DNA of 64,000 nucleotides from an uncultured virus (IMG/VR IMGVR_UViG_3300002098_000029) (taxonomy: Duplodnaviria; Heunggongvirae; Uroviricota; Caudoviricetes). Both the position numbers and the translations under genes were made by a program. Location of the stretch: IMG/VR virus record IMGVR_UViG_3300002098_000029, positions 1-64,000 of that record; one strand, written 5' to 3'. The first letter of the stretch is position 1, and each line of letters starts with the position of its first letter. Below the pieces are notes generated by a model. That model saw only the letters and a list, made by a program, of their open reading frames with translations. It did no database searches and was not told the DNA's origin. Shown here in pieces: positions 11,357 to 32,890 of this stretch.

Positions 11357-11459
11357 GATTGGTTATATCGTTTCAAACCGGGACATAGAGAATAATATAC
11401 TCTTGTCAAGCGAAAGTCAAGCATTACTGTGGTAAATATAATAATATGAAAGAAATAAA

Positions 11460-12026
11460 ATGACAATACCAGTACCAGCAGCACCCGTACCTAAGAAAAA
11501 ACCCAAACAGTATGTAAATAATGCCGACTTTCTTAAAGCACTAATGGATTATAAAGAAGGTTGTAAACTTGCCACAAAGAATAAAACAGAACCTCCTCCT
11601 ATTCCTAATTATATTGGAGAATGTTTTATGAAGATAGCAGAAGGCCTATCACACAAACCTAACTTCATTAACTATACTTACCGTGATGAAATGATGTCTG
11701 ATGGTATTGAGAACTGCTTGATGTACTTCAATAATTTCAATCCAGAAAAATCCAAGAACCCATTTGCCTACTTTACCCAAATCATTTATTATGCCTTTTT
11801 ACGGAGAATCCAAAAGGAAAAGAAACAAACCTATGTAAAATACAAAGCTACCGAACAGATGGGTATTTTAGATGAGTTTGAAATGTTAGAGTTGGAAGAT
11901 GGTACCTCAATGCAATTTCAATTATATGATAATATTGCCGAGTTTATTGAGACCTATGAAACGGCAAAAGAGAATAAAAAAGCGGTAAAGAAGCCAAAAG
12001 GGATTGAAAAGTTCTTAGGAGAGTGA
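11460..12026 (+). CDS. gp55: Late-transcription sigma factor
   Basis: YVNNADFL, YIGECFMKIAEGLS, NPFAYFTQI. Confidence 0.96.
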   Translation: MTIPVPAAPVPKKKPKQYVNNADFLKALMDYKEGCKLATKNKTEPPPIPNYIGECFMKIAEGLSHKPNFINYTYRDEMMSDGIENCLMYFNNFNPEKSKNPFAYFTQIIYYAFLRRIQKEKKQTYVKYKATEQMGILDEFEMLELEDGTSMQFQLYDNIAEFIETYETAKENKKAVKKPKGIEKFLGE

Positions 12027-25580: not shown

Positions 25581-25650
25581 ATAAATAAAGGTTGTGAGTA
25601 TTAACGGAGATATGCAATTATTGGGTCAACTTATTAAGGAGAGACCTAAA

Positions 25651-26154
25651 ATGCAGTTAAGTATAGTCGGTTGTCCCGATAAACAGCGTTTCCGTCCCTA
25701 TGTTAGAAGGGCTGCTCTTTTTTACGCCAACGAACTCATGAAACCTAAGATGTTAGAAAACATCTATCTTAGAATCAAATTCAACAGTAAAATAAATGTT
25801 TACGGATATGCTGAAATTTTAGAATATAATGAAAGTCGTAAAGCAAGAGAATTTGAAATAGAATTAAACCCAAACATTGGAGCAGCAGAAATTCTGAAAT
25901 GTTTGGCACATGAAATGACACATATTAAACAATATGCCTATAATGAAACCAACGAAACATTAACTCGTTGGAAAGGTAGAAAAGTTGATTCCGATAATAT
26001 GGATTATTGGATTCAACCTTGGGAAATAGAAGCCTTTGGTACTGAAGTAGGATTATTTGCAAAGTTTGCCATCAAAGAAAAACTTTGGGATGTATTTTAC
26101 GGAATACAAAATCCCGATGGACCAATAGAAATAGAAGAATTGGGTTGGAAATAA
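25651..26154 (+). CDS. Zincin-like metallopeptidase
   Basis: AHEMTH (HExxH), QPWEIEA; AAGGAG SD before ATG 25651. Confidence 0.75.
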   Translation: MQLSIVGCPDKQRFRPYVRRAALFYANELMKPKMLENIYLRIKFNSKINVYGYAEILEYNESRKAREFEIELNPNIGAAEILKCLAHEMTHIKQYAYNETNETLTRWKGRKVDSDNMDYWIQPWEIEAFGTEVGLFAKFAIKEKLWDVFYGIQNPDGPIEIEELGWK

Positions 26155-26163
26155 ATTCAATAG

Positions 26164-26215
26164 TGTTGTTTCCACACAACACCATGGTTGACAAACAAAT
26201 TTAAACCTGTATAAT
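26164..26215 (+). promoter_or_regulatory. Palindrome TGTTGT-N6-ACAACA followed by sigma70-like promoter P1 of tRNA region
   Basis: Palindrome 26164-26181; TTGACA(26188)-16 nt-TATAAT(26210). Confidence 0.7.
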
Positions 26216-26266: not shown

Positions 26267-26295
26267 TTGACAAATGAGCATATATACTGTATAAT
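26267..26295 (+). promoter_or_regulatory. Consensus sigma70 promoter P2 of tRNA region
   Basis: TTGACA-17 nt-TATAAT. Confidence 0.85.
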
Positions 26296-26332
26296 TGTTG
26301 AATTAAATAAATTAAGTAAAGAAAGAAATAAA

Positions 26333-26434
26333 ATGTTGTTTGTAACGAAACCTTTATCCATGCAGTCAGAGTATCGCACACCGAGTAATTGGTCAGCGAT
26401 TGGCTTTGACCATGTTTTCGGGGTTCGTGTATAG
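26333..26434 (+). CDS. Putative attenuator leader peptide (33 aa)
   Basis: MLFVTKPLSMQSEYRTPSNWSAIGFDHVFGVRV*; same GAAAGAAATAAAATG start context as gp55; 3' end overlaps antiterminator arm. Confidence 0.65.
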   Translation: MLFVTKPLSMQSEYRTPSNWSAIGFDHVFGVRV

Positions 26435-26495
26435 AACAAATGTAATTCTCTTTCACACACGAACCCGATTCTAAACAAATCGGGTTTTTTGTTTT
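26421..26495 (+). terminator. Mutually exclusive antiterminator/terminator (attenuator)
   Basis: GGGTTCGTGT(26421)/ACACGAACCC(26457) versus AACCCGATT(26462)/AATCGGGTT(26478)+TTTTGTTTT. Confidence 0.8.
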
Positions 26496-26545
26496 CCGCA
26501 GTTTGTTTTAATGTTACTAGACAGTAAACAATTTCGTTAGTAACA

Positions 26546-26568
26546 GTTCTTTAAAAATTTAAGTAGTA
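26546..26568 (+). promoter_or_regulatory. boxA-like antitermination element
   Basis: GTTCTTTAAAAATTTAAGTAGTA, near-duplicated at 27064. Confidence 0.65.
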
Positions 26569-26573
26569 TCTAT

Positions 26574-26647
26574 TGAGATATAGTGTAATGGCAGCACAGG
26601 TGACTTTGACTCACCTAGTATAAGTTCGAGTCTTATTATCTCTACCA
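26574..26647 (+). tRNA. tRNA-Gln(TTG)
   Basis: Cloverleaf, GGTGA-CTTTGAC-TCACC, TTCGA loop, CCA. Confidence 0.9.
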
Positions 26648-26648
26648 T

Positions 26649-26737
26649 GGAGGGTTATCCAGGCTGGGCCTGGCTCTGTCTTGAAAACAGGTGGACTGCG
26701 TGAGCGGTTAGAGTTCGATTCTGCTATCCCTCCTCCA
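26649..26737 (+). tRNA. tRNA-Ser(TGA)
   Basis: GGAGGG acceptor, long variable arm, CTTGAAA loop, CCA. Confidence 0.85.
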
Positions 26738-26813
26738 TATTGAAGCACATTGAAGCACAGTTCGACTGTTACCGCAATGCTACCGTTAGCGGCCGGTGAG
26801 TGTGCTTCAATAT
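26738..26813 (+). ncRNA. Long-stem spacer RNA 1
   Basis: ATATTGAAGCACA/TGTGCTTCAATAT closing stem with internal hairpins. Confidence 0.6.
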
Positions 26814-26900
26814 GGAAGATGTGTTGCAAGGTGCGACCGAAGTTTGCTAAACTTCCGTTCAGAAATGGGCTGATAGGTTCGATTCCTATATCTTCCTCCA
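26814..26900 (+). tRNA. tRNA-Ser(GCT)
   Basis: GAAGT-TTGCTAA-ACTTC, variable arm, CCA. Confidence 0.9.
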
Positions 26901-26901
26901 T

Positions 26902-26978
26902 GTGGGTGTGCAACTGAAAGGCGAGGTAGAGGATTGCAAATCCTTATTATGCAGGTTCGAATCCTGTCACCCACTCCA
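26902..26978 (+). tRNA. tRNA-Cys(GCA)
   Basis: GAGGA-TTGCAAA-TCCTT, U73, CCA. Confidence 0.9.
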
Positions 26979-26983
26979 AGATA

Positions 26984-27085
26984 TGTTGTACCAAAACAAC
27001 AGTATAAAAATAGTGCTTGTGTTATTCTGTGGTTGATGTATAATAATTGTTCTGTTGTAAATTGTTCTTTAAAAATTAAGTAGTA
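26984..27085 (+). promoter_or_regulatory. Second TGTTGT-N6-ACAACA palindrome, internal promoter-like sequence and boxA-like element
   Basis: Palindrome 26984-27001; TATAAT at 27039 with weak -35; TGTTCTTTAAAAATTAAGTAGTA at 27063. Confidence 0.6.
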
Positions 27086-27090
27086 ACAAT

Positions 27091-27165
27091 ACTGCTATCG
27101 ACTAACGGTTAGGTCAAGAGGTTTTCATCCTCTAAATCGGGGTTCGATTCCCCGTAGCAGTACCA
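27091..27165 (+). tRNA. tRNA-Glu(TTC)
   Basis: AGAGG-TTTTCAT-CCTCT, CCA. Confidence 0.9.
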
Positions 27166-27293
27166 ATATTGAAGTGTTTTGCTCATACTGATTAAAGAAA
27201 TTAGCTTGACTAGTTTTGGAGAATCAAGAAAACACGCCAGAGATTTTAGCAATTCGTCTGGCAGGAAGAGAAGCTACAAAGCACTTCAATATT
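27166..27293 (+). ncRNA. Long-stem spacer RNA 2
   Basis: AATATTGAAGTGTTTT/AAAGCACTTCAATATT closing stem; inner CTTGA/TCAAG and GCCAGA/TCTGGC. Confidence 0.6.
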
Positions 27294-27368
27294 GGTCTCG
27301 TCATATAATGGTTATTATGCTGGACTGTCTATCCGGATATGGGAGTTCGATCCTCCCTGGGACCGCCA
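27294..27368 (+). tRNA. tRNA-Asp(GTC)
   Basis: CTGGA-CTGTCTA-TCCGG, G73, CCA. Confidence 0.9.
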
Positions 27369-27383
27369 ATTAAGTTTTACTGT

Positions 27384-27461
27384 TGTACTCGAGCAAGCAA
27401 GGCGTATGCGCTCCGCTGTTAACGGAGAATGAGTTAGGTTCGATTCCTAAGAGTACAGCCA
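27384..27461 (+). tRNA. tRNA-Asn(GTT)
   Basis: CTCCG-CTGTTAA-CGGAG, G73, CCA. Confidence 0.9.
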
Positions 27462-27470
27462 AGTTTCAAT

Positions 27471-27554
27471 GCGTGAGATGTTCCAATGGTGGGACAGGAG
27501 ACTGTAAATCTCTGGCCTTACGGCAGGTAGGTTCGATCCCTACCTCACGCACCA
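27471..27554 (+). tRNA. tRNA-Tyr(GTA)
   Basis: GGAGA-CTGTAAA-TCTCT, variable arm, CCA. Confidence 0.9.
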
Positions 27555-27629
27555 AAGAATTGCGGAGAAAGTAACTACTTTAGGTATTCGAGCATAGGAG
27601 AGAGTTACAATGCGCCGCAACCTAACAAT

Positions 27630-27708
27630 CTGTGTGTAATGTCAGTCTGGTCAGACGGCTCGGTTTGGAACTGAGAGGACGGTGGTTCGAATCCATCCAC
27701 ACAGACCA
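27630..27708 (+). tRNA. tRNA-Pro(TGG)
   Basis: CTCGG-TTTGGAA-CTGAG, C1:G72, CCA. Confidence 0.9.
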
Positions 27709-27748
27709 ATAACAAAGTAAATTTTGTAGTAATAACAAAGTAAATTTT
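27708..27748 (+). repeat. 18-nt direct repeat AATAACAAAGTAAATTTT x2
   Basis: 27708-27725 and 27731-27748. Confidence 0.8.
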
Positions 27749-27763
27749 TAAAGGAGTAGTAAA

Positions 27764-27964
27764 ATGAAACCAAGAAATCCATTCGCCATATTGGTGAAGA
27801 AAAGGATGGCGGGCTCGCACCGCAAGAGCAATAAAGCTCTACGTAAGAAAGAAAAACAATCCAGGTGTGATGAAAATGGCAATCATATTCGGCTTTTACC
27901 CGAACTTTCAGAGTTCAAATCTCTGCGCCTGGACCAGTTTATATTAAAGCAAACTACCACTTAA
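27764..27964 (+). CDS. Small basic protein reading through tRNA-Lys
   Basis: AAGGAG SD; MKPRNPFAILVKKRMAGSHRKSNKALRKKEK. Confidence 0.55.
   Translation: MKPRNPFAILVKKRMAGSHRKSNKALRKKEKQSRCDENGNHIRLLPELSEFKSLRLDQFILKQTTT
27861..27936 (+). tRNA. tRNA-Lys(TTT)
   Basis: TTCGG-CTTTTAC-CCGAA, TTCAA loop, CCA. Confidence 0.85.
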
Positions 27965-28050
27965 TACATATATGTGGAGTCGTTCCGGAAAACCTTCCAC
28001 GGGTTACTTAGAAGGTTCGAAACTTCTAGGGTTAGTTTGCTTTAATATAA
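27939..28050 (+). ncRNA. Long-stem spacer RNA 3
   Basis: Perfect 18-bp closing stem TTATATTAAAGCAAACTA/TAGTTTGCTTTAATATAA. Confidence 0.6.
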
Positions 28051-28053
28051 TTT

Positions 28054-28128
28054 GGGCTGTTAGTGCTAATGGGAACACATCTGGTTTGCAACCAGAAATT
28101 GAGAGTTCGATCCTCTCACGGTCCACCA
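28054..28128 (+). tRNA. tRNA-Ala(TGC)
   Basis: G3:U70, TCTGG-TTTGCAA-CCAGA, CCA. Confidence 0.92.
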
Positions 28129-28135
28129 AGTTTAA

Positions 28136-28209
28136 TGCGGGTTGTAATAGATACCGCTCGGTCTCATAAGCCGATGTCGAAGATGGAGCATTACCATCGC
28201 CCGCAACCA
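28136..28209 (+). tRNA. Atypical tRNA-Met(CAT), initiator-like acceptor, reduced D arm
   Basis: TGCGGGT/GCCCGCA-A-CCA, TCGGT-CTCATAA-GCCGA, T loop AGCATTA. Confidence 0.7.
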
Positions 28210-28216
28210 AGTTTTT

Positions 28217-28292
28217 GCCCTTGAAACCTTTAATGGATGAGGTCCTGTTTTGTAAGCAGGAGAAGCAGGTTCGATTCCTGACTGGGGCACCA
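28217..28292 (+). tRNA. tRNA-Thr(TGT)
   Basis: CCTGT-TTTGTAA-GCAGG, CCA. Confidence 0.87.
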
Positions 28293-28295
28293 AGT

Positions 28296-28471
28296 TTTGT
28301 AAGTGTAGATGTTGAGAAATGATTTATAGGCATATAAATTTAAAGGGATAATTCGAGGCGCAAATTAAGGGCGTCATCTAGTATCAACTATTACTGCGTA
28401 CCTCTGTACCGGGCGCCCTAGTATTAACGGTTAAAATGACAGCGAATAAGTGAGGCGCTGTGGCTTACAAA
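28296..28471 (+). ncRNA. Unidentified ~175-nt spacer RNA 4
   Basis: TTTGTAAGT/GCTTACAAA closing stem, internal stems, no ORF. Confidence 0.5.
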
Positions 28472-28479
28472 TTTAATAT

Positions 28480-28554
28480 AGTAACGTAGCATTGAGGTAA
28501 TGCGCCACCTTCATACGGTGTCCCAAGTGAGTTCGATTCCCACCGTTACTACCA
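28480..28554 (+). tRNA. tRNA-Met(CAT), elongator-like
   Basis: CACC-TTCATAC-GGTG, CCA. Confidence 0.87.
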
Positions 28555-28561
28555 GTTTTAT

Positions 28562-28636
28562 GGGTCATTAGTAAAATGAATATTACGGAAGTCTACGGAA
28601 CTTCAGGTGGGAGTTTGATTCTCTCATGACCCTCCA
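28562..28636 (+). tRNA. tRNA-Arg(ACG)
   Basis: GAAGT-CTACGGA-ACTTC, CCA. Confidence 0.87.
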
Positions 28637-28642
28637 AGTTTT

Positions 28643-28717
28643 GCTCGATTAGCTGAGATGGATTAGCAACGTCTTGATAAGGCGTAGACGGTGGATCGTT
28701 ACCACCATCGAGTACCA
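28643..28717 (+). tRNA. tRNA-Ile(GAT)
   Basis: ACGTC-TTGATAA-GGCGT; T loop ATCGTTA; CCA. Confidence 0.85.
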
Positions 28718-28724
28718 GATCAGG

Positions 28725-28819
28725 CCCACAGGAGTCCTCGTGACTGTCAAACTTTCAACCTGTTAAAATAAAAGAAAGTGGGAGTTGCTAGACCTCCTTC
28801 AGTAGAAGCAAACTAGCAC
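28725..28819 (+). ncRNA. Unidentified spacer RNA 5 with two possible pseudoknots
   Basis: ACAGG/CCTGT crossing CTTTC/GAAAG; GGAG/CTCC crossing TGCTAG/CTAGCA. Confidence 0.5.
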
Positions 28820-28822
28820 TAT

Positions 28823-28896
28823 CCCTCGCAAGTGTTCCGGTAGCACAACGGTTTCCAAATCCGTTGGACGGGGTTCGATTCCCTGGCGGGGGGCCA
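28823..28896 (+). tRNA. tRNA-Trp(CCA)
   Basis: ACGG..TTCCAAA..CCGT, G73, CCA. Confidence 0.87.
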
Positions 28897-28916
28897 AATT
28901 GTAAAAAGGAGTTGTC

Positions 28917-29393
28917 ATGAAAAAGATAGATTTAGTAGAAGTTAAAAGATTCATTGAAGCACAATCTGAAGATACTAAAATTTATCTTGGTGCTGACTCT
29001 GAAAGATTTGAAATTAAAGGTGTATGGTACGCAGATTATACTCTTGCTGTTGTTGTTCACATTGATGGTTGCCATGGTTGCAAAATCTTTGGTGAAGTAT
29101 CAAGAGAAAGAGATTATGACCAAAAGAAAAATAAACCTTCAATTCGTTTAATGAATGAAGTTTATAAAGTTGCTGATTTATTTCAGGCATTATCTGACGT
29201 ATTGGAAGACCGTTATGTTGAAGTACATTTAGATATTAACCCAAATGAATTGTATGGTTCATCTTGTGTGGTTCAACAAGCAATTGGTTATATCAAAGGT
29301 ACCTGTAATGTTACACCTATGGTTAAACCAAAAGCGTTTGCTGCTTCATATGCGGCAGATAGATTAAAGTTTGTGTTAGCAGAAGCAGCATAA
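28917..29393 (+). CDS. RNase H-like protein (YkuK/DUF458-like)
   Basis: IYLGADS, RLMNEV, EVHLDIN, KPKAFAASYAADR. Confidence 0.8.
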   Translation: MKKIDLVEVKRFIEAQSEDTKIYLGADSERFEIKGVWYADYTLAVVVHIDGCHGCKIFGEVSRERDYDQKKNKPSIRLMNEVYKVADLFQALSDVLEDRYVEVHLDINPNELYGSSCVVQQAIGYIKGTCNVTPMVKPKAFAASYAADRLKFVLAEAA

Positions 29394-29400
29394 AGTATTT

Positions 29401-29473
29401 GCGGGTATGCACGAGGTGTGTCGCCAGCCTTCCAAGCTGTGTAGTAGGAGTTCGAATCTCCTTACCCGCTCCA
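29401..29473 (+). tRNA. tRNA-Gly(TCC)
   Basis: GCGGGTA/TACCCGC-T-CCA, CTTCCAA loop. Confidence 0.88.
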
Positions 29474-29479
29474 AACAAT

Positions 29480-29553
29480 GGTGTTGTTAATGTAATGGTT
29501 GCATACTTGTCTGTGAAACAAGGCGAGAGGGTTCGATTCCCCACTTCACCCCA
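29480..29553 (+). tRNA. tRNA-His(GTG)
   Basis: G-1, C73, CTTGT-CTGTGAA-ACAAG; two T:T mismatches in acceptor stem. Confidence 0.8.
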
Positions 29554-29564
29554 AGAAAGAGATT

Positions 29565-29795
29565 ATGTTTAAAGTTTATATAACAGGTAAAGATAATTTA
29601 CCTTACTCATTTGATTTTGAAGATATGAGTGAAGCACTACAAGCAACACAAGATTTTCGTAACAAAGGTTATGATTTTGTAACAATGTGTTCGGAAAATC
29701 CAAATTGCACTAGTTTACCAGGAGTTGATTCTGTTAAATCAGGACTTTTGTCAAATGGTGCAGAGTATGGATATGTTAAACGTAGATACAAGTAA
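29565..29795 (+). CDS. Hypothetical protein
   Basis: 76-aa ORF filling a tRNA spacer; FVTMCSENPN. Confidence 0.7.
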   Translation: MFKVYITGKDNLPYSFDFEDMSEALQATQDFRNKGYDFVTMCSENPNCTSLPGVDSVKSGLLSNGAEYGYVKRRYK

Positions 29796-29798
29796 TAT

Positions 29799-29872
29799 GC
29801 CTCGGTAGTTTAATGGTAGAATAGCGGTGTTACATACCGTTGATGAGAGTTCGATTCTCTAACGAGGTACCA
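29799..29872 (+). tRNA. tRNA-Val(TAC)
   Basis: GCGGT-GTTACAT-ACCGT, CCA. Confidence 0.88.
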
Positions 29873-29874
29873 AT

Positions 29875-29950
29875 GCAACTTTAGCTGATGTGGTCATAGC
29901 GGTGGTTTGAAGAACCATTGAACCAAGTTCGATCCTTGGAGGTTGCACCA
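29875..29950 (+). tRNA. tRNA-Phe(GAA)
   Basis: GTGGT-TTGAAGA-ACCAT, CCA. Confidence 0.9.
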
Positions 29951-29968
29951 AAATTTAGAAAGTTTATT

Positions 29969-31168
29969 ATGATATTAGATATTAAAAATGTAAAAATGTG
30001 GACTGGTGATATGGATATTGAGCAAGCAGCCCAAGATCAAATTCGTAACATCGCTGCTTTGCCAATTTTAGCTGGACACATGGCAATTATGCCAGATGTA
30101 CATATGGGTAAAGGTGCTACTGTTGGTTCAGTTATTCCAACTCGTAATGCAATCATACCAGCCGCAGTAGGTGTTGATATTGGTTGTGGTATGTGTGCTG
30201 TTATGACTAACTTAACTGCATCCGACTTACCAGATTCCTTAACATCATTGCGTAATAGTATTGAACGTGGAGTACCAGTAGGTTTTAATGAACATAGTCG
30301 TAGTTCAATTAAAGTAAAAGGTGCAGCTGCCGATAAATTACGCCAAGCTGAAATGAAAATGTTTCAACGATGGGATAAATTAGTATTAAAGAAAAAATTA
30401 GGTCGTGCTGATCCATATAAAATTGCAAATCAAATTGGAACTTTAGGAGGTGGAAATCACTTCATTGAAATCTGTTTAGATTCGGAAGACCGAGTATGGG
30501 TTATGTTACATTCTGGTTCCCGTGGTATTGGCAATCAAATTGGTACTGTTGCCATCGAAATGGCCAAAGAAATTGCTATTCGTGAACAACGTAAGTTAGT
30601 AGATTCTGATTTGGCTTGGCTAGATGAAGGCACTGCTGAATTTAATGCTTATATTGAAGCAATGCATTGGGCTCAGGATTACGCTATGCTTAATCGTGAT
30701 ACCATGATGCAAATTGTATTGGAAAATTTACGACACAAATTTCCAAAGATGAAAACTCTCGGAGAAATTGTAAACTGTCACCACAATTTTACTAACTTAG
30801 AAAACCATTTTGGTGAAGATATGTGGGTTACTCGTAAAGGTGCAGTTTCGGCTCGTGAAGGACAAATGGGAATTATTCCAGGTTCAATGGGTGCAAAATC
30901 TTTTATCGTAATGGGTAAAGGTAATCATGACGCCTATTGTTCTTGTTCACACGGAGCAGGTCGTAAAATGAGTCGTAATGCTGCAAAGAAATATTTTACA
31001 GTAGAAGATTTATCATTACAAACTATAGGTGTTGAATGTCGTAAAGACGATGGTGTTCTGGATGAAATTCCAGGTGCATATAAAGATATTGACCAAGTTA
31101 TGGATGCCCAAAAAGAATTGGTTGATATTGTTCACACTTTAAAACAAGTAATGTGTATTAAAGGTTAG
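29969..31168 (+). CDS. rtcB: RtcB RNA ligase
   Basis: MPDVHMG, VGVDIGCGM, GTLGGGNHFIE, HSGSRG, SHGAGR, DEIPGAYK; ATG 29969. Confidence 0.95.
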   Translation: MILDIKNVKMWTGDMDIEQAAQDQIRNIAALPILAGHMAIMPDVHMGKGATVGSVIPTRNAIIPAAVGVDIGCGMCAVMTNLTASDLPDSLTSLRNSIERGVPVGFNEHSRSSIKVKGAAADKLRQAEMKMFQRWDKLVLKKKLGRADPYKIANQIGTLGGGNHFIEICLDSEDRVWVMLHSGSRGIGNQIGTVAIEMAKEIAIREQRKLVDSDLAWLDEGTAEFNAYIEAMHWAQDYAMLNRDTMMQIVLENLRHKFPKMKTLGEIVNCHHNFTNLENHFGEDMWVTRKGAVSAREGQMGIIPGSMGAKSFIVMGKGNHDAYCSCSHGAGRKMSRNAAKKYFTVEDLSLQTIGVECRKDDGVLDEIPGAYKDIDQVMDAQKELVDIVHTLKQVMCIKG

Positions 31169-31175
31169 TGGGATA

Positions 31176-31249
31176 GCTCTTATAGTATAATGGCATTACA
31201 CATCCTTGGTAAGGATGAAACACAAGTTCAATTCTTGTTAAGAGCACCA
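31176..31249 (+). tRNA. tRNA-Thr(GGT)
   Basis: CATCC-TTGGTAA-GGATG, CCA. Confidence 0.9.
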
Positions 31250-31253
31250 AAAT

Positions 31254-31331
31254 GGGAGATTGAAGGGAATTGGTATACCTCATTCGCTTAGAACGAATGG
31301 TTTCTCGGTTCGAGTCCGAGGTCTCCCACCA
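31254..31331 (+). tRNA. tRNA-Leu(TAG), short variable loop
   Basis: ATTCG-CTTAGAA-CGAAT, CCA. Confidence 0.87.
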
Positions 31332-31347
31332 AGCTTGACAATAGTAT

Positions 31348-31422
31348 CTGGCGTTAGTATAATGGACAATACAGTAGGCTTCTACCCTTCTGATGGGAGT
31401 TCGATTCTCTCACGCCAGACCA
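31348..31422 (+). tRNA. tRNA-Arg(TCT)
   Basis: GTAGG-CTTCTAC-CCTTC, CCA. Confidence 0.87.
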
Positions 31423-31427
31423 GATTA

Positions 31428-31503
31428 GGTCCTTAAGCTAATGCGGTGATAGCAAACGGCTCATAACCGTTAGGGCAGAGTTCGATTCTCTGGAGGACCA
31501 CCA
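31428..31503 (+). tRNA. tRNA(CAT), probably Ile2 type
   Basis: GGTCCTT/GAGGACC acceptor, AACGG-CTCATAA-CCGTT. Confidence 0.85.
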
Positions 31504-31521
31504 AGTATACCAGAATATGTA

Positions 31522-31550
31522 TTGACATTTAACATACATAAGTATATAAT
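31522..31550 (+). promoter_or_regulatory. Consensus sigma70 promoter
   Basis: TTGACA-17 nt-TATAAT. Confidence 0.85.
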
Positions 31551-31626
31551 AGTATTTACTGTTGGGAAACAGCAAAACTTCCGGCGCTAGTAAAGTGGTG
31601 TCCCTGTAACCGGTAAGCAGGACAAT

Positions 31627-31696
31627 GCGGTGTGTAGATAGAACAGTTTAGGATACCCTCTTAAAAAACTTTGTGCAAACCAAAGGCACCGCTCCA
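31627..31696 (+). ncRNA. tRNA-like RNA A (Gly-type acceptor, reduced D arm)
   Basis: GCGGTGT/GCACCGC-T-CCA; CTTTG-TGCAAAC-CAAAG T arm; AGGATACCCTCTT central hairpin. Confidence 0.7.
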
Positions 31697-31721
31697 AATT
31701 TATTGATTAGAGGACTATATT

Positions 31722-31937
31722 ATGGCAACAAAAGGTACGAATCAAAGAACTCGTAAGGCAAATCCAATGTTAACCAAAACTGGCAAGACCCGTTTAGGTC
31801 CTTTGAACATCAAACAATTATCAAAACTGTTAGATGGTGCCCGTAAGAAACATATTCCTAAGATTAAGAAAGCTATTGCAAAACGTTTACAGACCCAAAA
31901 ATTTGGTAAGGACGCAGAGCCAGTAGCTTCAGAATGA
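31722..31937 (+). CDS. Small basic hypothetical protein
   Basis: GAGGA SD; NPMLTKTGKTRLGPLN. Confidence 0.7.
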   Translation: MATKGTNQRTRKANPMLTKTGKTRLGPLNIKQLSKLLDGARKKHIPKIKKAIAKRLQTQKFGKDAEPVASE

Positions 31938-32074
31938 AAAAGAAAAAAGACGAAGTTGTAGAAGAAATAAAATCTAATACATCGCCTTCTTGGGGTAGAA
32001 TGTTGACCAAAAAAGAATTACTTGATATGCTTGATAGAATTTATGCCAAGCAAAAAGAGAAAAAAGAAAAGTAA
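31934..32074 (+). CDS. Small hypothetical protein (46 aa, not in ORF track)
   Basis: ATGA coupling; MKKKKDEVVEE...WGRMLTKKELLDMLDRIY. Confidence 0.55.
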   Translation: MKKKKDEVVEEIKSNTSPSWGRMLTKKELLDMLDRIYAKQKEKKEK

Positions 32075-32078
32075 CAAT

Positions 32079-32145
32079 GCGGAGTGTAATAGTACGATTC
32101 AGGATACCCTCTTGAATTATCTGAGCATAGCAGAACTCCGCTCCA
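32079..32145 (+). ncRNA. tRNA-like RNA B (Gly-type acceptor, reduced D arm)
   Basis: GCGGAGT/ACTCCGC-T-CCA; GATTCAGGA-TACCC-TCTTGAATT; TCTG-AGCATAG-CAGA. Confidence 0.7.
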
Positions 32146-32149
32146 GTAT

Positions 32150-32367
32150 TCATTATTGAGAATGTGAACGAAAGAGTAAGCAATCCTAACTGTTAAGGAA
32201 GATCACAATCCTGTAAGACCCACTCTAGCTTAGAGAACACTGCATGCTAAGGCAGTTTGGCGAACACAGGAGAATTGGTAGCAAGGTTCATGAATTAAGT
32301 AGTGAATGACCTTAAACGTCTAACTACTACACGGTTCTTAAACACAAAACAGTATTCTCAATAATGA
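32150..32367 (+). ncRNA. Unidentified ~218-nt spacer RNA 6
   Basis: TCATTATTGAGAAT/ATTCTCAATAATGA 14-bp closing stem, several internal hairpins. Confidence 0.6.
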
Positions 32368-32381
32368 CTATATAATTCTAT

Positions 32382-32456
32382 AGCGGGGTCGCATAAAGGT
32401 ATTGCACCGGACTCATAATCCGGGTTTTGTTGGTTCGAGTCCAGCCCCCGCAACCA
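32382..32456 (+). tRNA. tRNA-fMet(CAT)-like
   Basis: A1:A72 mismatch, GCGGGG/CCCCGC, CCGGA-CTCATAA-TCCGG. Confidence 0.87.
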
Positions 32457-32469
32457 ATAAGGAGATATT

Positions 32470-32613
32470 ATGAGTGAAATTAAATCAAACACTAAAAAAG
32501 TTCCCAATATTCCTATGATTAAGAATACAGGACCAAAATCTGCTACAAAACCCAAAGGTCCGATTGCGGCTAAAACTGCTAAACCATTGCGCAAAGCGGG
32601 GAGAGGTAGATGA
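32470..32613 (+). CDS. Small basic hypothetical protein (47 aa, not in ORF track)
   Basis: AAGGAG SD; MSEIKSNTKKVPNIP...LRKAGRGR. Confidence 0.65.
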   Translation: MSEIKSNTKKVPNIPMIKNTGPKSATKPKGPIAAKTAKPLRKAGRGR

Positions 32614-32804
32614 CGCAACCAAAAGAAAAAGGTGGAGTTCCACCAATTGAAATTTACACTATTATTGGTAAAGGTGTTGAAGAAATTGATCCTACCAAAA
32701 AACAAGATGATGAAAATGAAGATGCCGAATTCAAGAGAATTGAAGATGAACAATTCCGGCAAAAAGAATTAGAAAAGGTAAGAAATCTTACTCGTTGGCC
32801 GTAA
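32610..32804 (+). CDS. Hypothetical protein
   Basis: ATGA coupling, GGAG upstream. Confidence 0.6.
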   Translation: MTQPKEKGGVPPIEIYTIIGKGVEEIDPTKKQDDENEDAEFKRIEDEQFRQKELEKVRNLTRWP

Positions 32805-32816
32805 CAATTTATTAAT

Positions 32817-32890
32817 GCGGGATTAGTTTAATGGCAAAACTGTAGGTTTCCAACCTTCCGTTATTGGTTCGATTCCAATATCCCGCTCCA
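32817..32890 (+). tRNA. tRNA-Gly(TCC), second copy
   Basis: GCGGGAT/ATCCCGC-T-CCA, TTTCCAA loop. Confidence 0.9.

Follow-up and report, generated by a model that had tools for sequence, protein, structure and literature searches.

The closest described systems are the leader-peptide attenuators of enterobacterial amino-acid operons (trp, his, leu and pheA, and the multivalent thr and ilvGMEDA). Other leader open reading frames (ORFs) sense general translation stress by stalling, as in antibiotic-responsive attenuators and the mycobacterial whiB7 leader, and T-box riboswitches bind uncharged transfer RNA (tRNA) directly, without a leader ORF. In T4-type phages, cassettes of an early promoter and a stem-loop shuffle small ORFs. 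Bacterial tRNA genes are thought to be controlled at their promoters, and to our knowledge leader-peptide attenuation has so far been tied to amino-acid and drug-resistance genes. Published accounts deal with the pheL leader (PMC3082878) and with leader ORFs that sense translation stress (PMC6851288, PMC10274678). Here we analyse a 64,000-nucleotide stretch (the window) of an uncultured T4-like phage, part of the IMG/VR virus record IMGVR_UViG_3300002098_000029 (76.6 kb, about 45% complete), in which a promoter, a 33-codon leader ORF and an intrinsic terminator stand ahead of a large array of tRNA genes.

From the arrangement and conservation of its parts, we consider it probable that this element is a ribosome-mediated (leader-peptide) transcription attenuator heading the phage tRNA array. 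The last codons of the ORF (antiterminator arm A) form a perfect 10-bp helix with a downstream segment (antiterminator arm B), 26421-26430 pairing with 26457-26466, and since arm B is also the 5' half of the terminator, the A:B helix and the terminator are mutually exclusive. Perfect helices of at least 10 bp that overlap the terminator arm arose in only 3 of 5000 dinucleotide shuffles of the upstream leader. Related uncultured phages bring the number of distinct leader variants to 18, five of a long type (32-33 codons) and 13 of a short type (22-25 codons), and the overlap between antiterminator and terminator is kept in every one of them. The case is built from the anatomy of the element, its conservation, the reading-frame evidence, the energetics of the alternative structures and a trend in leader composition. 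The features of the leader region in the window are as follows.

26188 to 26215, + strand: promoter P1, TTGACA-N16-TATAAT, of sigma-70-type consensus (12/12 matches)
26267 to 26295, + strand: promoter P2, TTGACA-N17-TATAAT, ahead of the leader (12/12 matches; conserved in the long-type variants)
26321 to 26328, + strand: weak Shine-Dalgarno (SD)-like sequence GAAAGAAA, which pairs with 26449-26454 in the predicted leader fold
26333 to 26434, + strand: leader ORF, 33 codons plus TAG, peptide MLFVTKPLSMQSEYRTPSNWSAIGFDHVFGVRV (19 distinct amino acids, 28 distinct codons)
26345 to 26353, + strand: region 1 (codons 5-7), predicted from minimum-energy folds to pair with arm A as an anti-antiterminator
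26359 to 26414, + strand: internal ORF hairpin, the most conserved core of the long-type leader (predicted folds and alignments)
26421 to 26430, + strand: antiterminator arm A, GGGTTCGTGT, the last codons of the ORF; the stop codon begins 2 nt later
26449 to 26454, + strand: anti-SD segment UCUUUC, between the stop codon and arm B (predicted fold)
26457 to 26466, + strand: antiterminator arm B, ACACGAACCC, of which six bases (26461-26466) are common to the terminator 5' arm
26461 to 26495, + strand: intrinsic terminator with a 10-pair stem, a 7-nt loop and a T tail (hairpin 26461-26487, tail to 26495)
26513 to 26544, + strand: conserved hairpin GTTACTA...TAGTAAC, downstream of the terminator and upstream of the boxA-like motif (read from the sequence; the arms of the long-type version L052 differ and still pair)
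26546 to 26559, + strand: boxA-like motif GTTCTTTAAAAATT, with a second copy at 27064-27077
26574 to 26978, + strand: first tRNAs, Gln, Ser(UGA)-like, Ser(GCU) and Cys, with no promoter-like site between the terminator and these genes
27017 to 27077, + strand: promoter-like site TTGTGT-N16-TATAAT (27017-27044) and second boxA-like motif (27064-27077), after the fourth tRNA and before tRNA-Glu (read from the sequence)

An earlier note on this DNA had described a consensus promoter, a 33-codon ORF that uses 19 amino acids and 28 codons, a start context shared with gp55, a 10-bp helix overlapping the 5' arm of a terminator, and a boxA-like motif followed by the first tRNA. All of these are present: the promoter is P2, the ORF and the helix have the coordinates given above, and the boxA-like motif at 26546 precedes tRNA-Gln, which starts at 26574. 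The 15-mer start context GAAAGAAATAAAATG occurs exactly twice in the window, at 26321 and at 11448, the latter ahead of the late sigma factor gene (11460-12023; phrog_234, E 6e-62).

In the mechanism that we propose, host RNA polymerase would start at P2 (and P1) and transcribe the leader ORF, whose last codons could then pair with arm B. A ribosome running fast to the TAG would cover arm A, so that arm B folds into the terminator and transcription stops near 26495; this would hold for both leader types. A ribosome held earlier would open the ORF hairpin and leave arm A free, the A:B helix would form and the polymerase would read into the tRNA genes. The extent to which a ribosome at a stop codon covers the antiterminator arm is taken from established footprint sizes, and in all 18 variants the position of the stop (2 nt after arm A in the long type, 4 nt after its core in the short type) lets a terminating ribosome cover the arm. 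An untranslated long-type leader would probably terminate as well, because region 1 would pair with arm A and the anti-SD segment with the SD, and an untranslated short-type leader would read through. We infer the direction and size of the response, and the stresses that trigger it, from this model.

Conservation and alternative folds of the switch

We counted base pairs in an alignment of the 18 variants. The eight core pairs of the A:B helix are paired in all 144 cells, and the changes comprise one compensatory replacement of C:G by U:A (in L080, the most divergent long-type version) and one G:U pair. The terminator is 95.7% paired, three of its pairs have changed on both sides, and its covariation score was reached by none of 500 shuffles. 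Because the L080 stem is one pair longer and shifted, this shared-column count under-scores L080, whose terminator differs in sequence, forms a perfect 11-pair hairpin and still shares ACCCC with its own arm B. Covarying helices, which the earlier note had proposed to look for, are thus evident in the terminator, but in the antiterminator the signal is thin and consists of the single compensatory change and the one G:U pair.

The window's antiterminator and terminator have predicted energies of -16.1 and -12.1 kcal/mol, respectively. Across 17 of the 18 variants (L087 left out), the antiterminator is somewhat the more stable structure, at -15.3 to -18.2 kcal/mol compared with -12.1 to -15.2 kcal/mol for the terminator. 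The leader as a whole folds far more stably than its shuffles (-56.4 kcal/mol, z = -5.35), and the predicted long-type architecture, which combines SD:anti-SD pairing, the long ORF hairpin and pairing of region 1 with arm A, is common to all five long variants. The predicted SD:anti-SD pairing is GAAAGA:UCUUUC in the window and AGGAAA:UUUCCU in L080, and region 1 of L080 has its own 10-bp pairing with one mismatch. We also compared contigs from four DNA sequencing runs with the stretch; contigs X6 and X7 carry TTC in place of CCT at 26351-26353, which keeps the pairing with GGG of arm A. Further variants are among the differences listed, including G>A at 26461, the arm B base opposite 26426.

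Before the 3' arm of the terminator is made, the pairing of region 1 with arm A and the A:B helix are predicted at -43.7 and -43.1 kcal/mol in the window, and at -43.2 and -45.8 kcal/mol in L080, so the modelled alternative states are near-isoenergetic up to the completion of the terminator. In the full-length RNA the terminator state is ahead by 8-10 kcal/mol. The short type is without region 1, and its A:B helix is favoured (-24.8 versus -16.2 kcal/mol). Region 1 (26345-26353) and the anti-SD segment (26449-26454) had been overlooked in the earlier note, which predicted constitutive read-through after loss of the start codon. With these two segments, termination rather than read-through may be the outcome when a long-type leader is not translated, and since the window's states differ by only -43.7 versus -43.1 kcal/mol, the effect of a start-codon knockout is uncertain.

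Related leaders and their reading frame

Four DNA-pattern scans for the long-type leader returned 8, 8, 8 and 13 stretches. Its five versions are that of the window (identical copies L002 and L003), the L052 type, L056, L057 (the same as L029) and L080, of which L043/L059 is a truncated copy. The gene upstream of the leader (25594-26154; phrog_10499, of unknown function) has 50 related loci, 38 of them with a tRNA downstream within the locus, and it was in the gene-to-tRNA spacers of relatives that the short form was first noticed. The first short-type scan, whose pattern fixed arm A, gave 16 stretches (12 distinct), and the second gave 30, made up of 10 leaders (one of them new) and 20 unrelated ORFs. 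Short ORFs ahead of tRNA arrays in related phages, as the earlier note had advised looking for, are at hand in 18 distinct variants, the window's included.

All 13 short leaders end in GVRL-stop, encoded by the same arm A, and are followed by arm B and then by a terminator, from the T tail of which it is a few bases at most to the first tRNA. Their likeness to the long type extends to Y.RTPS..W in the L087 peptide, and GVR[LV]-stop is common to all leaders. The first tRNA follows the leader stop by 61-186 nt in 16 of the 16 arrays examined, and five first-tRNA identities (Gln, Trp, Ala, Ser and His) are found directly behind the element. Five of the 13 short leaders have a full TTGACA-N17-TATAAT promoter (L090, L095, L098, L100 and L106), and in 10 of the 13 the ATG comes 6 nt after the end of the -10 element, which suggests that the short-type mRNA is leaderless.

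Several of these short leaders of 22-25 codons, including L089 and L096, begin with MKILHIT or MKNLHIT. The 24-codon Escherichia coli tnaC leader peptide (MNILHICVTSKWFNIDNKIVDHRP, L146:1436-1510) matches L089 at five of the first seven residues, and the rest is unlike. Neither the leader region nor one short-type leader had a blastn match in 50,697 phage records. Among cultured phages, the late sigma factor points to a Methylophilales phage as the nearest relative (68% over 64% of the query), for which passages of the published description (PMC9004378) give four dispersed tRNAs and report no such element.

Start and stop codons are in frame in all 18 variants, at lengths of 22, 23, 24, 25, 32 and 33 codons, and the five long variants have the same TAG and an open ORF. 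L080 has an in-frame 3-nt deletion and starts with GTG in place of ATG, and it has gained an AAGGA SD (AAGGAAA). In the codon alignment of the short type, gaps occur in six columns and all of them are whole codons (at least five in-frame indels); nucleotide diversity in this alignment is nearly equal at codon positions 1, 2 and 3 (0.275, 0.256 and 0.306). These patterns suggest that the leader ORF is translated. The frame is conserved rather than the peptide, as would be expected of a regulatory leader more than of a functional protein or of a non-coding RNA. Taken with the kept overlap, the covariation of the terminator and the one compensatory change in the antiterminator, the frame-preserving indels of the 18 variants support the attenuator architecture put forward in the earlier note.

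A non-coding structured leader RNA with an incidental open frame, that is, a small RNA, a processing or stability element of a tRNA precursor, or a riboswitch-like sensor of a ligand or tRNA, is in our view improbable, although parts of the evidence speak for it. The leader folds far better than shuffles (z = -5.35), five of five long-type variants have the same predicted architecture, the core is conserved at the nucleotide level, and in short-type loci the T tail abuts the first tRNA, so that RNase P cleavage would release a discrete RNA. On the other hand, all 18 variants have their start and stop in one frame and differ in length by whole codons only, L080 keeps its start as GTG with an improved SD, and the 6-nt distance from the -10 element to the ATG in 10 of 13 short leaders suits a leaderless mRNA. 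Moreover, no Rfam family, T-box included, matches the leader strand at E up to 1; the sole Rfam match, to C0465, is on the other strand and scores 25.2 bits against a cut-off of 40 (E 0.39).

A scan with the pattern of the leader core also matched seven ligase genes (PF14395 / phrog_3815) that contain EYRTPSNW, one of which (L078) has F..KP at the same spacing as well. This likeness is the basis for regarding the ORF as a relic, an internal fragment of a phiEco32-like phage COOH-NH2 ligase gene that is open by chance, which we hold to be extremely improbable. The identity of eight residues was imposed by the search pattern; beyond the motif, tblastn gives only E 0.2-0.8, and the leader has no match to ligase profiles at E up to 1. 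No ligase was found in the genome record, by a search whose control did not detect the family anywhere, and none was found among the 50 related loci; the short-type relatives show that this segment evolves freely. Since the identity is imposed by the pattern and the rest is not significant, we treat the match as a coincidence and have set it aside. The seven metagenome loci themselves, including L078:92-910 and L084:476-1321, are unrelated GC-rich contigs with phiEco32-like ligases that carry the motif EYRTPSNWW.

Leader composition and the tRNA array

ARAGORN called 25 tRNAs in the window, from 26574 to 32890, and an RtcB (tRNA ligase) gene lies at 29969-31165 (PF01139, E 1e-128). With an extra tRNA-like gene at 26649-26733, the array has tRNAs for all 20 amino acids. 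We compared the arrays behind 16 leaders. Arrays behind long-type leaders hold 25 tRNAs in the window, 27 in G010, at least 23 in the truncated G012 and 26 Rfam hits in G011, and short-type leaders precede arrays of 5-14 tRNAs.

The amino-acid diversity of the leader is unusual. At least 19 amino acids occur in 0.44% of 33-residue windows taken from the 55 long ORFs of the window and in 1.3% of open ORF shuffles. Four of the long-type leaders contain 19 amino acids and L080 contains all 20 in 32 codons, as do only 4 of 14528 gene windows of 32 residues. L080 differs from the window at nine positions, and Gln and His, lost at their old sites, are regained elsewhere.

In the short type, the residues found in nearly all leaders are those of the tRNAs found in nearly all small arrays, namely Trp, Thr-UGU, Gly-UCC, Asn, Tyr and Met. 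With wobble pairing counted strictly, tRNAs of the genome's own array read 103 of the 205 inner codons in the leaders of 11 short-type genomes, an approximately two-fold enrichment over composition-matched open shuffles (51 +/- 6; none of 5000 reaches 103), and relative to gene windows the match is significant (p < 0.05) in 8 of 12 short-type leaders. The leader contains Pro in all four genomes that have tRNA-Pro and in one of seven that lack it; likewise, Ala is present in three of three leaders with a tRNA-Ala in the array and in one of eight without. These comparisons support the view that leader composition tracks array content across the family, with exceptions. The earlier note had proposed a sensor of every codon; L080 with its 20 amino acids agrees with this, but the short-type relatives are not pan-codon. 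Since the long-type leader has nearly every amino acid and its array serves all 20, the quantity sensed by the switch would be decoding capacity in general, with feedback on tRNA synthesis.

The tRNA-like gene at 26649-26733 has a long variable arm and was overlooked by ARAGORN (Rfam tRNA-Sec model, 45.7 bits, cut-off 47); its position corresponds to tRNA-Ser(UGA), the second ARAGORN call in the L080 array. Long hairpin spacers between tRNAs (26731-26813, 27166-27293 and L080:1024-1130) start with ATATTGAAG and end with CTTCAATAT; they are repeated inside the array, are also present in a relative and may be stable processed RNAs. Another conserved element, ATGCGG.GTGTA...AGGATACCCTCTT...C.CCGCTCCA, is found twice in the window (31637-31706 and 32078-32146) and in the spacers of L017 and L020. 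It has a closing helix like an acceptor stem and a CCA, one copy stands directly before a small basic ORF (MATKGTNQRTRK...), and it has no Rfam match at E up to 1. A perfect TTGACA-N17-TATAAT at 31335-31363 overlaps the start of tRNA-Arg(UCU), with its -10 element in the D-loop region, and another perfect promoter lies after tRNA-Met at 31522-31550.

Promoters, mobility and comparison with known systems

The promoter scan found no promoter-like site between 26296 and tRNA-Gln, and between the terminator and the first tRNA there is none in the window, the L052 type, L056 or L057. The motif GTTCTTTAAAAATT, which we liken to the rrn boxA antitermination motif, is followed by AAGTAGTA and stands 15-30 nt before the first tRNA of each transcription unit (26546-26559, 27064-27077 and L080:918-931). 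Since two matches in the window are not beyond chance (32 of 100 shuffles), the case for a boxA-like motif rests on its position and on conservation in relatives. The likeness would suggest loading of Nus factors on the tRNA transcripts.

Several observations weigh against an attenuator that gates the array by sensing decoding. The internal promoter that the earlier note flagged near 27039 corresponds to the weaker promoter-like site at 27017-27044, absent from the promoter-scan list because its first hexamer matches only three of six bases, and in the window just four genes, those for Gln, Ser(UGA)-like, Ser(GCU) and Cys tRNAs, are solely behind the switch. L080 has a consensus promoter (L080:868-895) downstream of the terminator and ahead of tRNA-Gln. 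Gating would hold for the first tRNAs of the window, where no promoter-like site intervenes, but because of the L080 promoter and the site after the fourth tRNA the switch is not the sole route to tRNA expression. The SD of the window is weak, and the run search listed no RNA sequencing runs that contain the stretch. The comparison with shuffled sequence, which the earlier note had proposed for codon diversity, comes out in favour of the amino acids, but not of the codons: at least 28 codons occur in 0.40% of gene windows and in 11.9% of shuffles, and codon diversity alone is therefore not beyond composition.

The sequence comparisons have limits of the same kind. Only two of the 18 variants, part of which were retrieved with arm A fixed, depart from an otherwise identical A:B core, and since the variants are related, p-values overstate their independence. 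Conservation of the long-type core at the nucleotide level exceeds what a leader of any codons would need. As regards composition, L145 is the exception to the large arrays of the long type and combines a 19-amino-acid leader with an array of eight tRNAs, the L139 leader contains Pro and Ala without such tRNAs in its array, and only two of the eight leaders whose arrays include tRNA-Glu contain Glu. K, I, F, C and H are found in leaders whose arrays have no tRNAs to match, codon enrichment is absent from L138 and the truncated L136, and in the long type the matched fraction equals expectation (0.71-0.79 observed, 0.74-0.82 expected) because these arrays read most codons anyway.

In L006/L007, arm B plus terminator ends the upstream gene, and the spacer of the next promoter, ahead of the tRNAs, holds an A-like GGTTCGTGTATAAT that is nearly the same as arm A with the stop codon in the window (GGTTCGTGTATAG). 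After the stop, the window has TATAGAACAAATG, which resembles TATAATAGAACAATG of the short type. These likenesses suggest that promoter and stem-loop modules recombined to give the long and the short form. From the arrangements in L080, L006/L007 and the window, the module would therefore be mobile and would top up rather than monopolise tRNA transcription.

Mobility would also be expected of an ordinary small early gene in a promoter-ORF-terminator cassette with a leaky terminator, in which case the tRNAs would be transcribed by run-through or from other promoters and the A:B helix would serve mRNA stability or be incidental; we think this unlikely. Relative to a homologous promoter, the cassette of L080 is on the opposite side from that of the window, the arm B plus terminator of L006/L007 ends one gene before a promoter with GGTTCGTGTATAAT in its spacer, the long-type core EYRTPSNW.AIG is strongly conserved, and a stem-loop lies upstream of P1, all of which would suit such a gene. 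In the short type, however, codon positions 1 and 2 change no more slowly than position 3 while the frame is kept, unlike in a protein under purifying selection. All 18 variants retain the overlap, L080 with its different terminator sequence among them, the element always stands directly before the first tRNA whichever of the five identities this has, and leader composition follows array content. Furthermore, the leader peptide matches no Pfam or PHROG family, and the 55-residue TTG-started frame that contains the ORF has no homologue among predicted proteins of 30-97 residues.

We therefore retain the leader-peptide attenuator as the reading of the locus. Beyond it, and with considerable doubt, the element could be a phage decoding homeostat and counter-defence sensor: any limiting tRNA, whether through codon mismatch, host shut-off or anticodon nucleases, would cause read-through into the complete tRNA set and possibly into the RtcB gene embedded in it. 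Leader and array would then co-evolve across the phage clade, small arrays having short leaders made up of the codons they serve and complete arrays having pan-amino-acid leaders. Our literature search, with subscription journals outside its coverage, turned up no account of phage or bacterial tRNA genes under leader-peptide attenuation. If the attenuator reading is true, attenuation would have a new regulatory use here, in which translation of a leader gauges decoding capacity and feeds back on tRNA transcription, and the dosing of tRNA arrays by large phages would be explained. Such a leader would also link phage tRNAs and RtcB (29969-31165) to current work on host defences that target tRNA. 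The element is compact and has sigma-70 consensus promoters, which makes direct laboratory testing feasible.

With the cassettes of T4-type phages, the locus shares an early promoter, a small ORF and a stem-loop as a movable unit, whose arrangement differs among the window, L080 and L007. We know of no such cassette described with a terminator-overlapping antiterminator tied to the stop codon of the ORF or with a fixed position before tRNA genes, both of which are found here. Like T-box riboswitches, the element would report tRNA status by transcription attenuation through competition between antiterminator and terminator, but it has a leader ORF, and its leader strand has no T-box match in Rfam at E up to 1.

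The attenuators of amino-acid operons have the same order of promoter, short ORF and mutually exclusive antiterminator and terminator hairpins, and in them, as proposed here, the antiterminator arm is hidden once a ribosome has reached the stop codon. Further likenesses are the pairing of the long type that resembles their 1:2 pairing, the sequestration of the SD, and, in the short type and with exceptions, the enrichment of the leader in codons tied to the regulated product. In contrast to those systems, the element is phage-borne and the regulated genes would be tRNAs rather than biosynthetic enzymes, there is no run of a single codon, as the leader holds 19-20 amino acids (long type) or the array's own set (short type), and the short type appears to be leaderless and is without region 1. 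As in stress-sensing leaders, read-through is proposed to rise when ribosomes stall in a short upstream ORF, with no dependence on a single amino acid. Those leaders control resistance or stress genes and mostly respond to drugs, whereas the output here would be the decoding machinery itself, closing a feedback loop.

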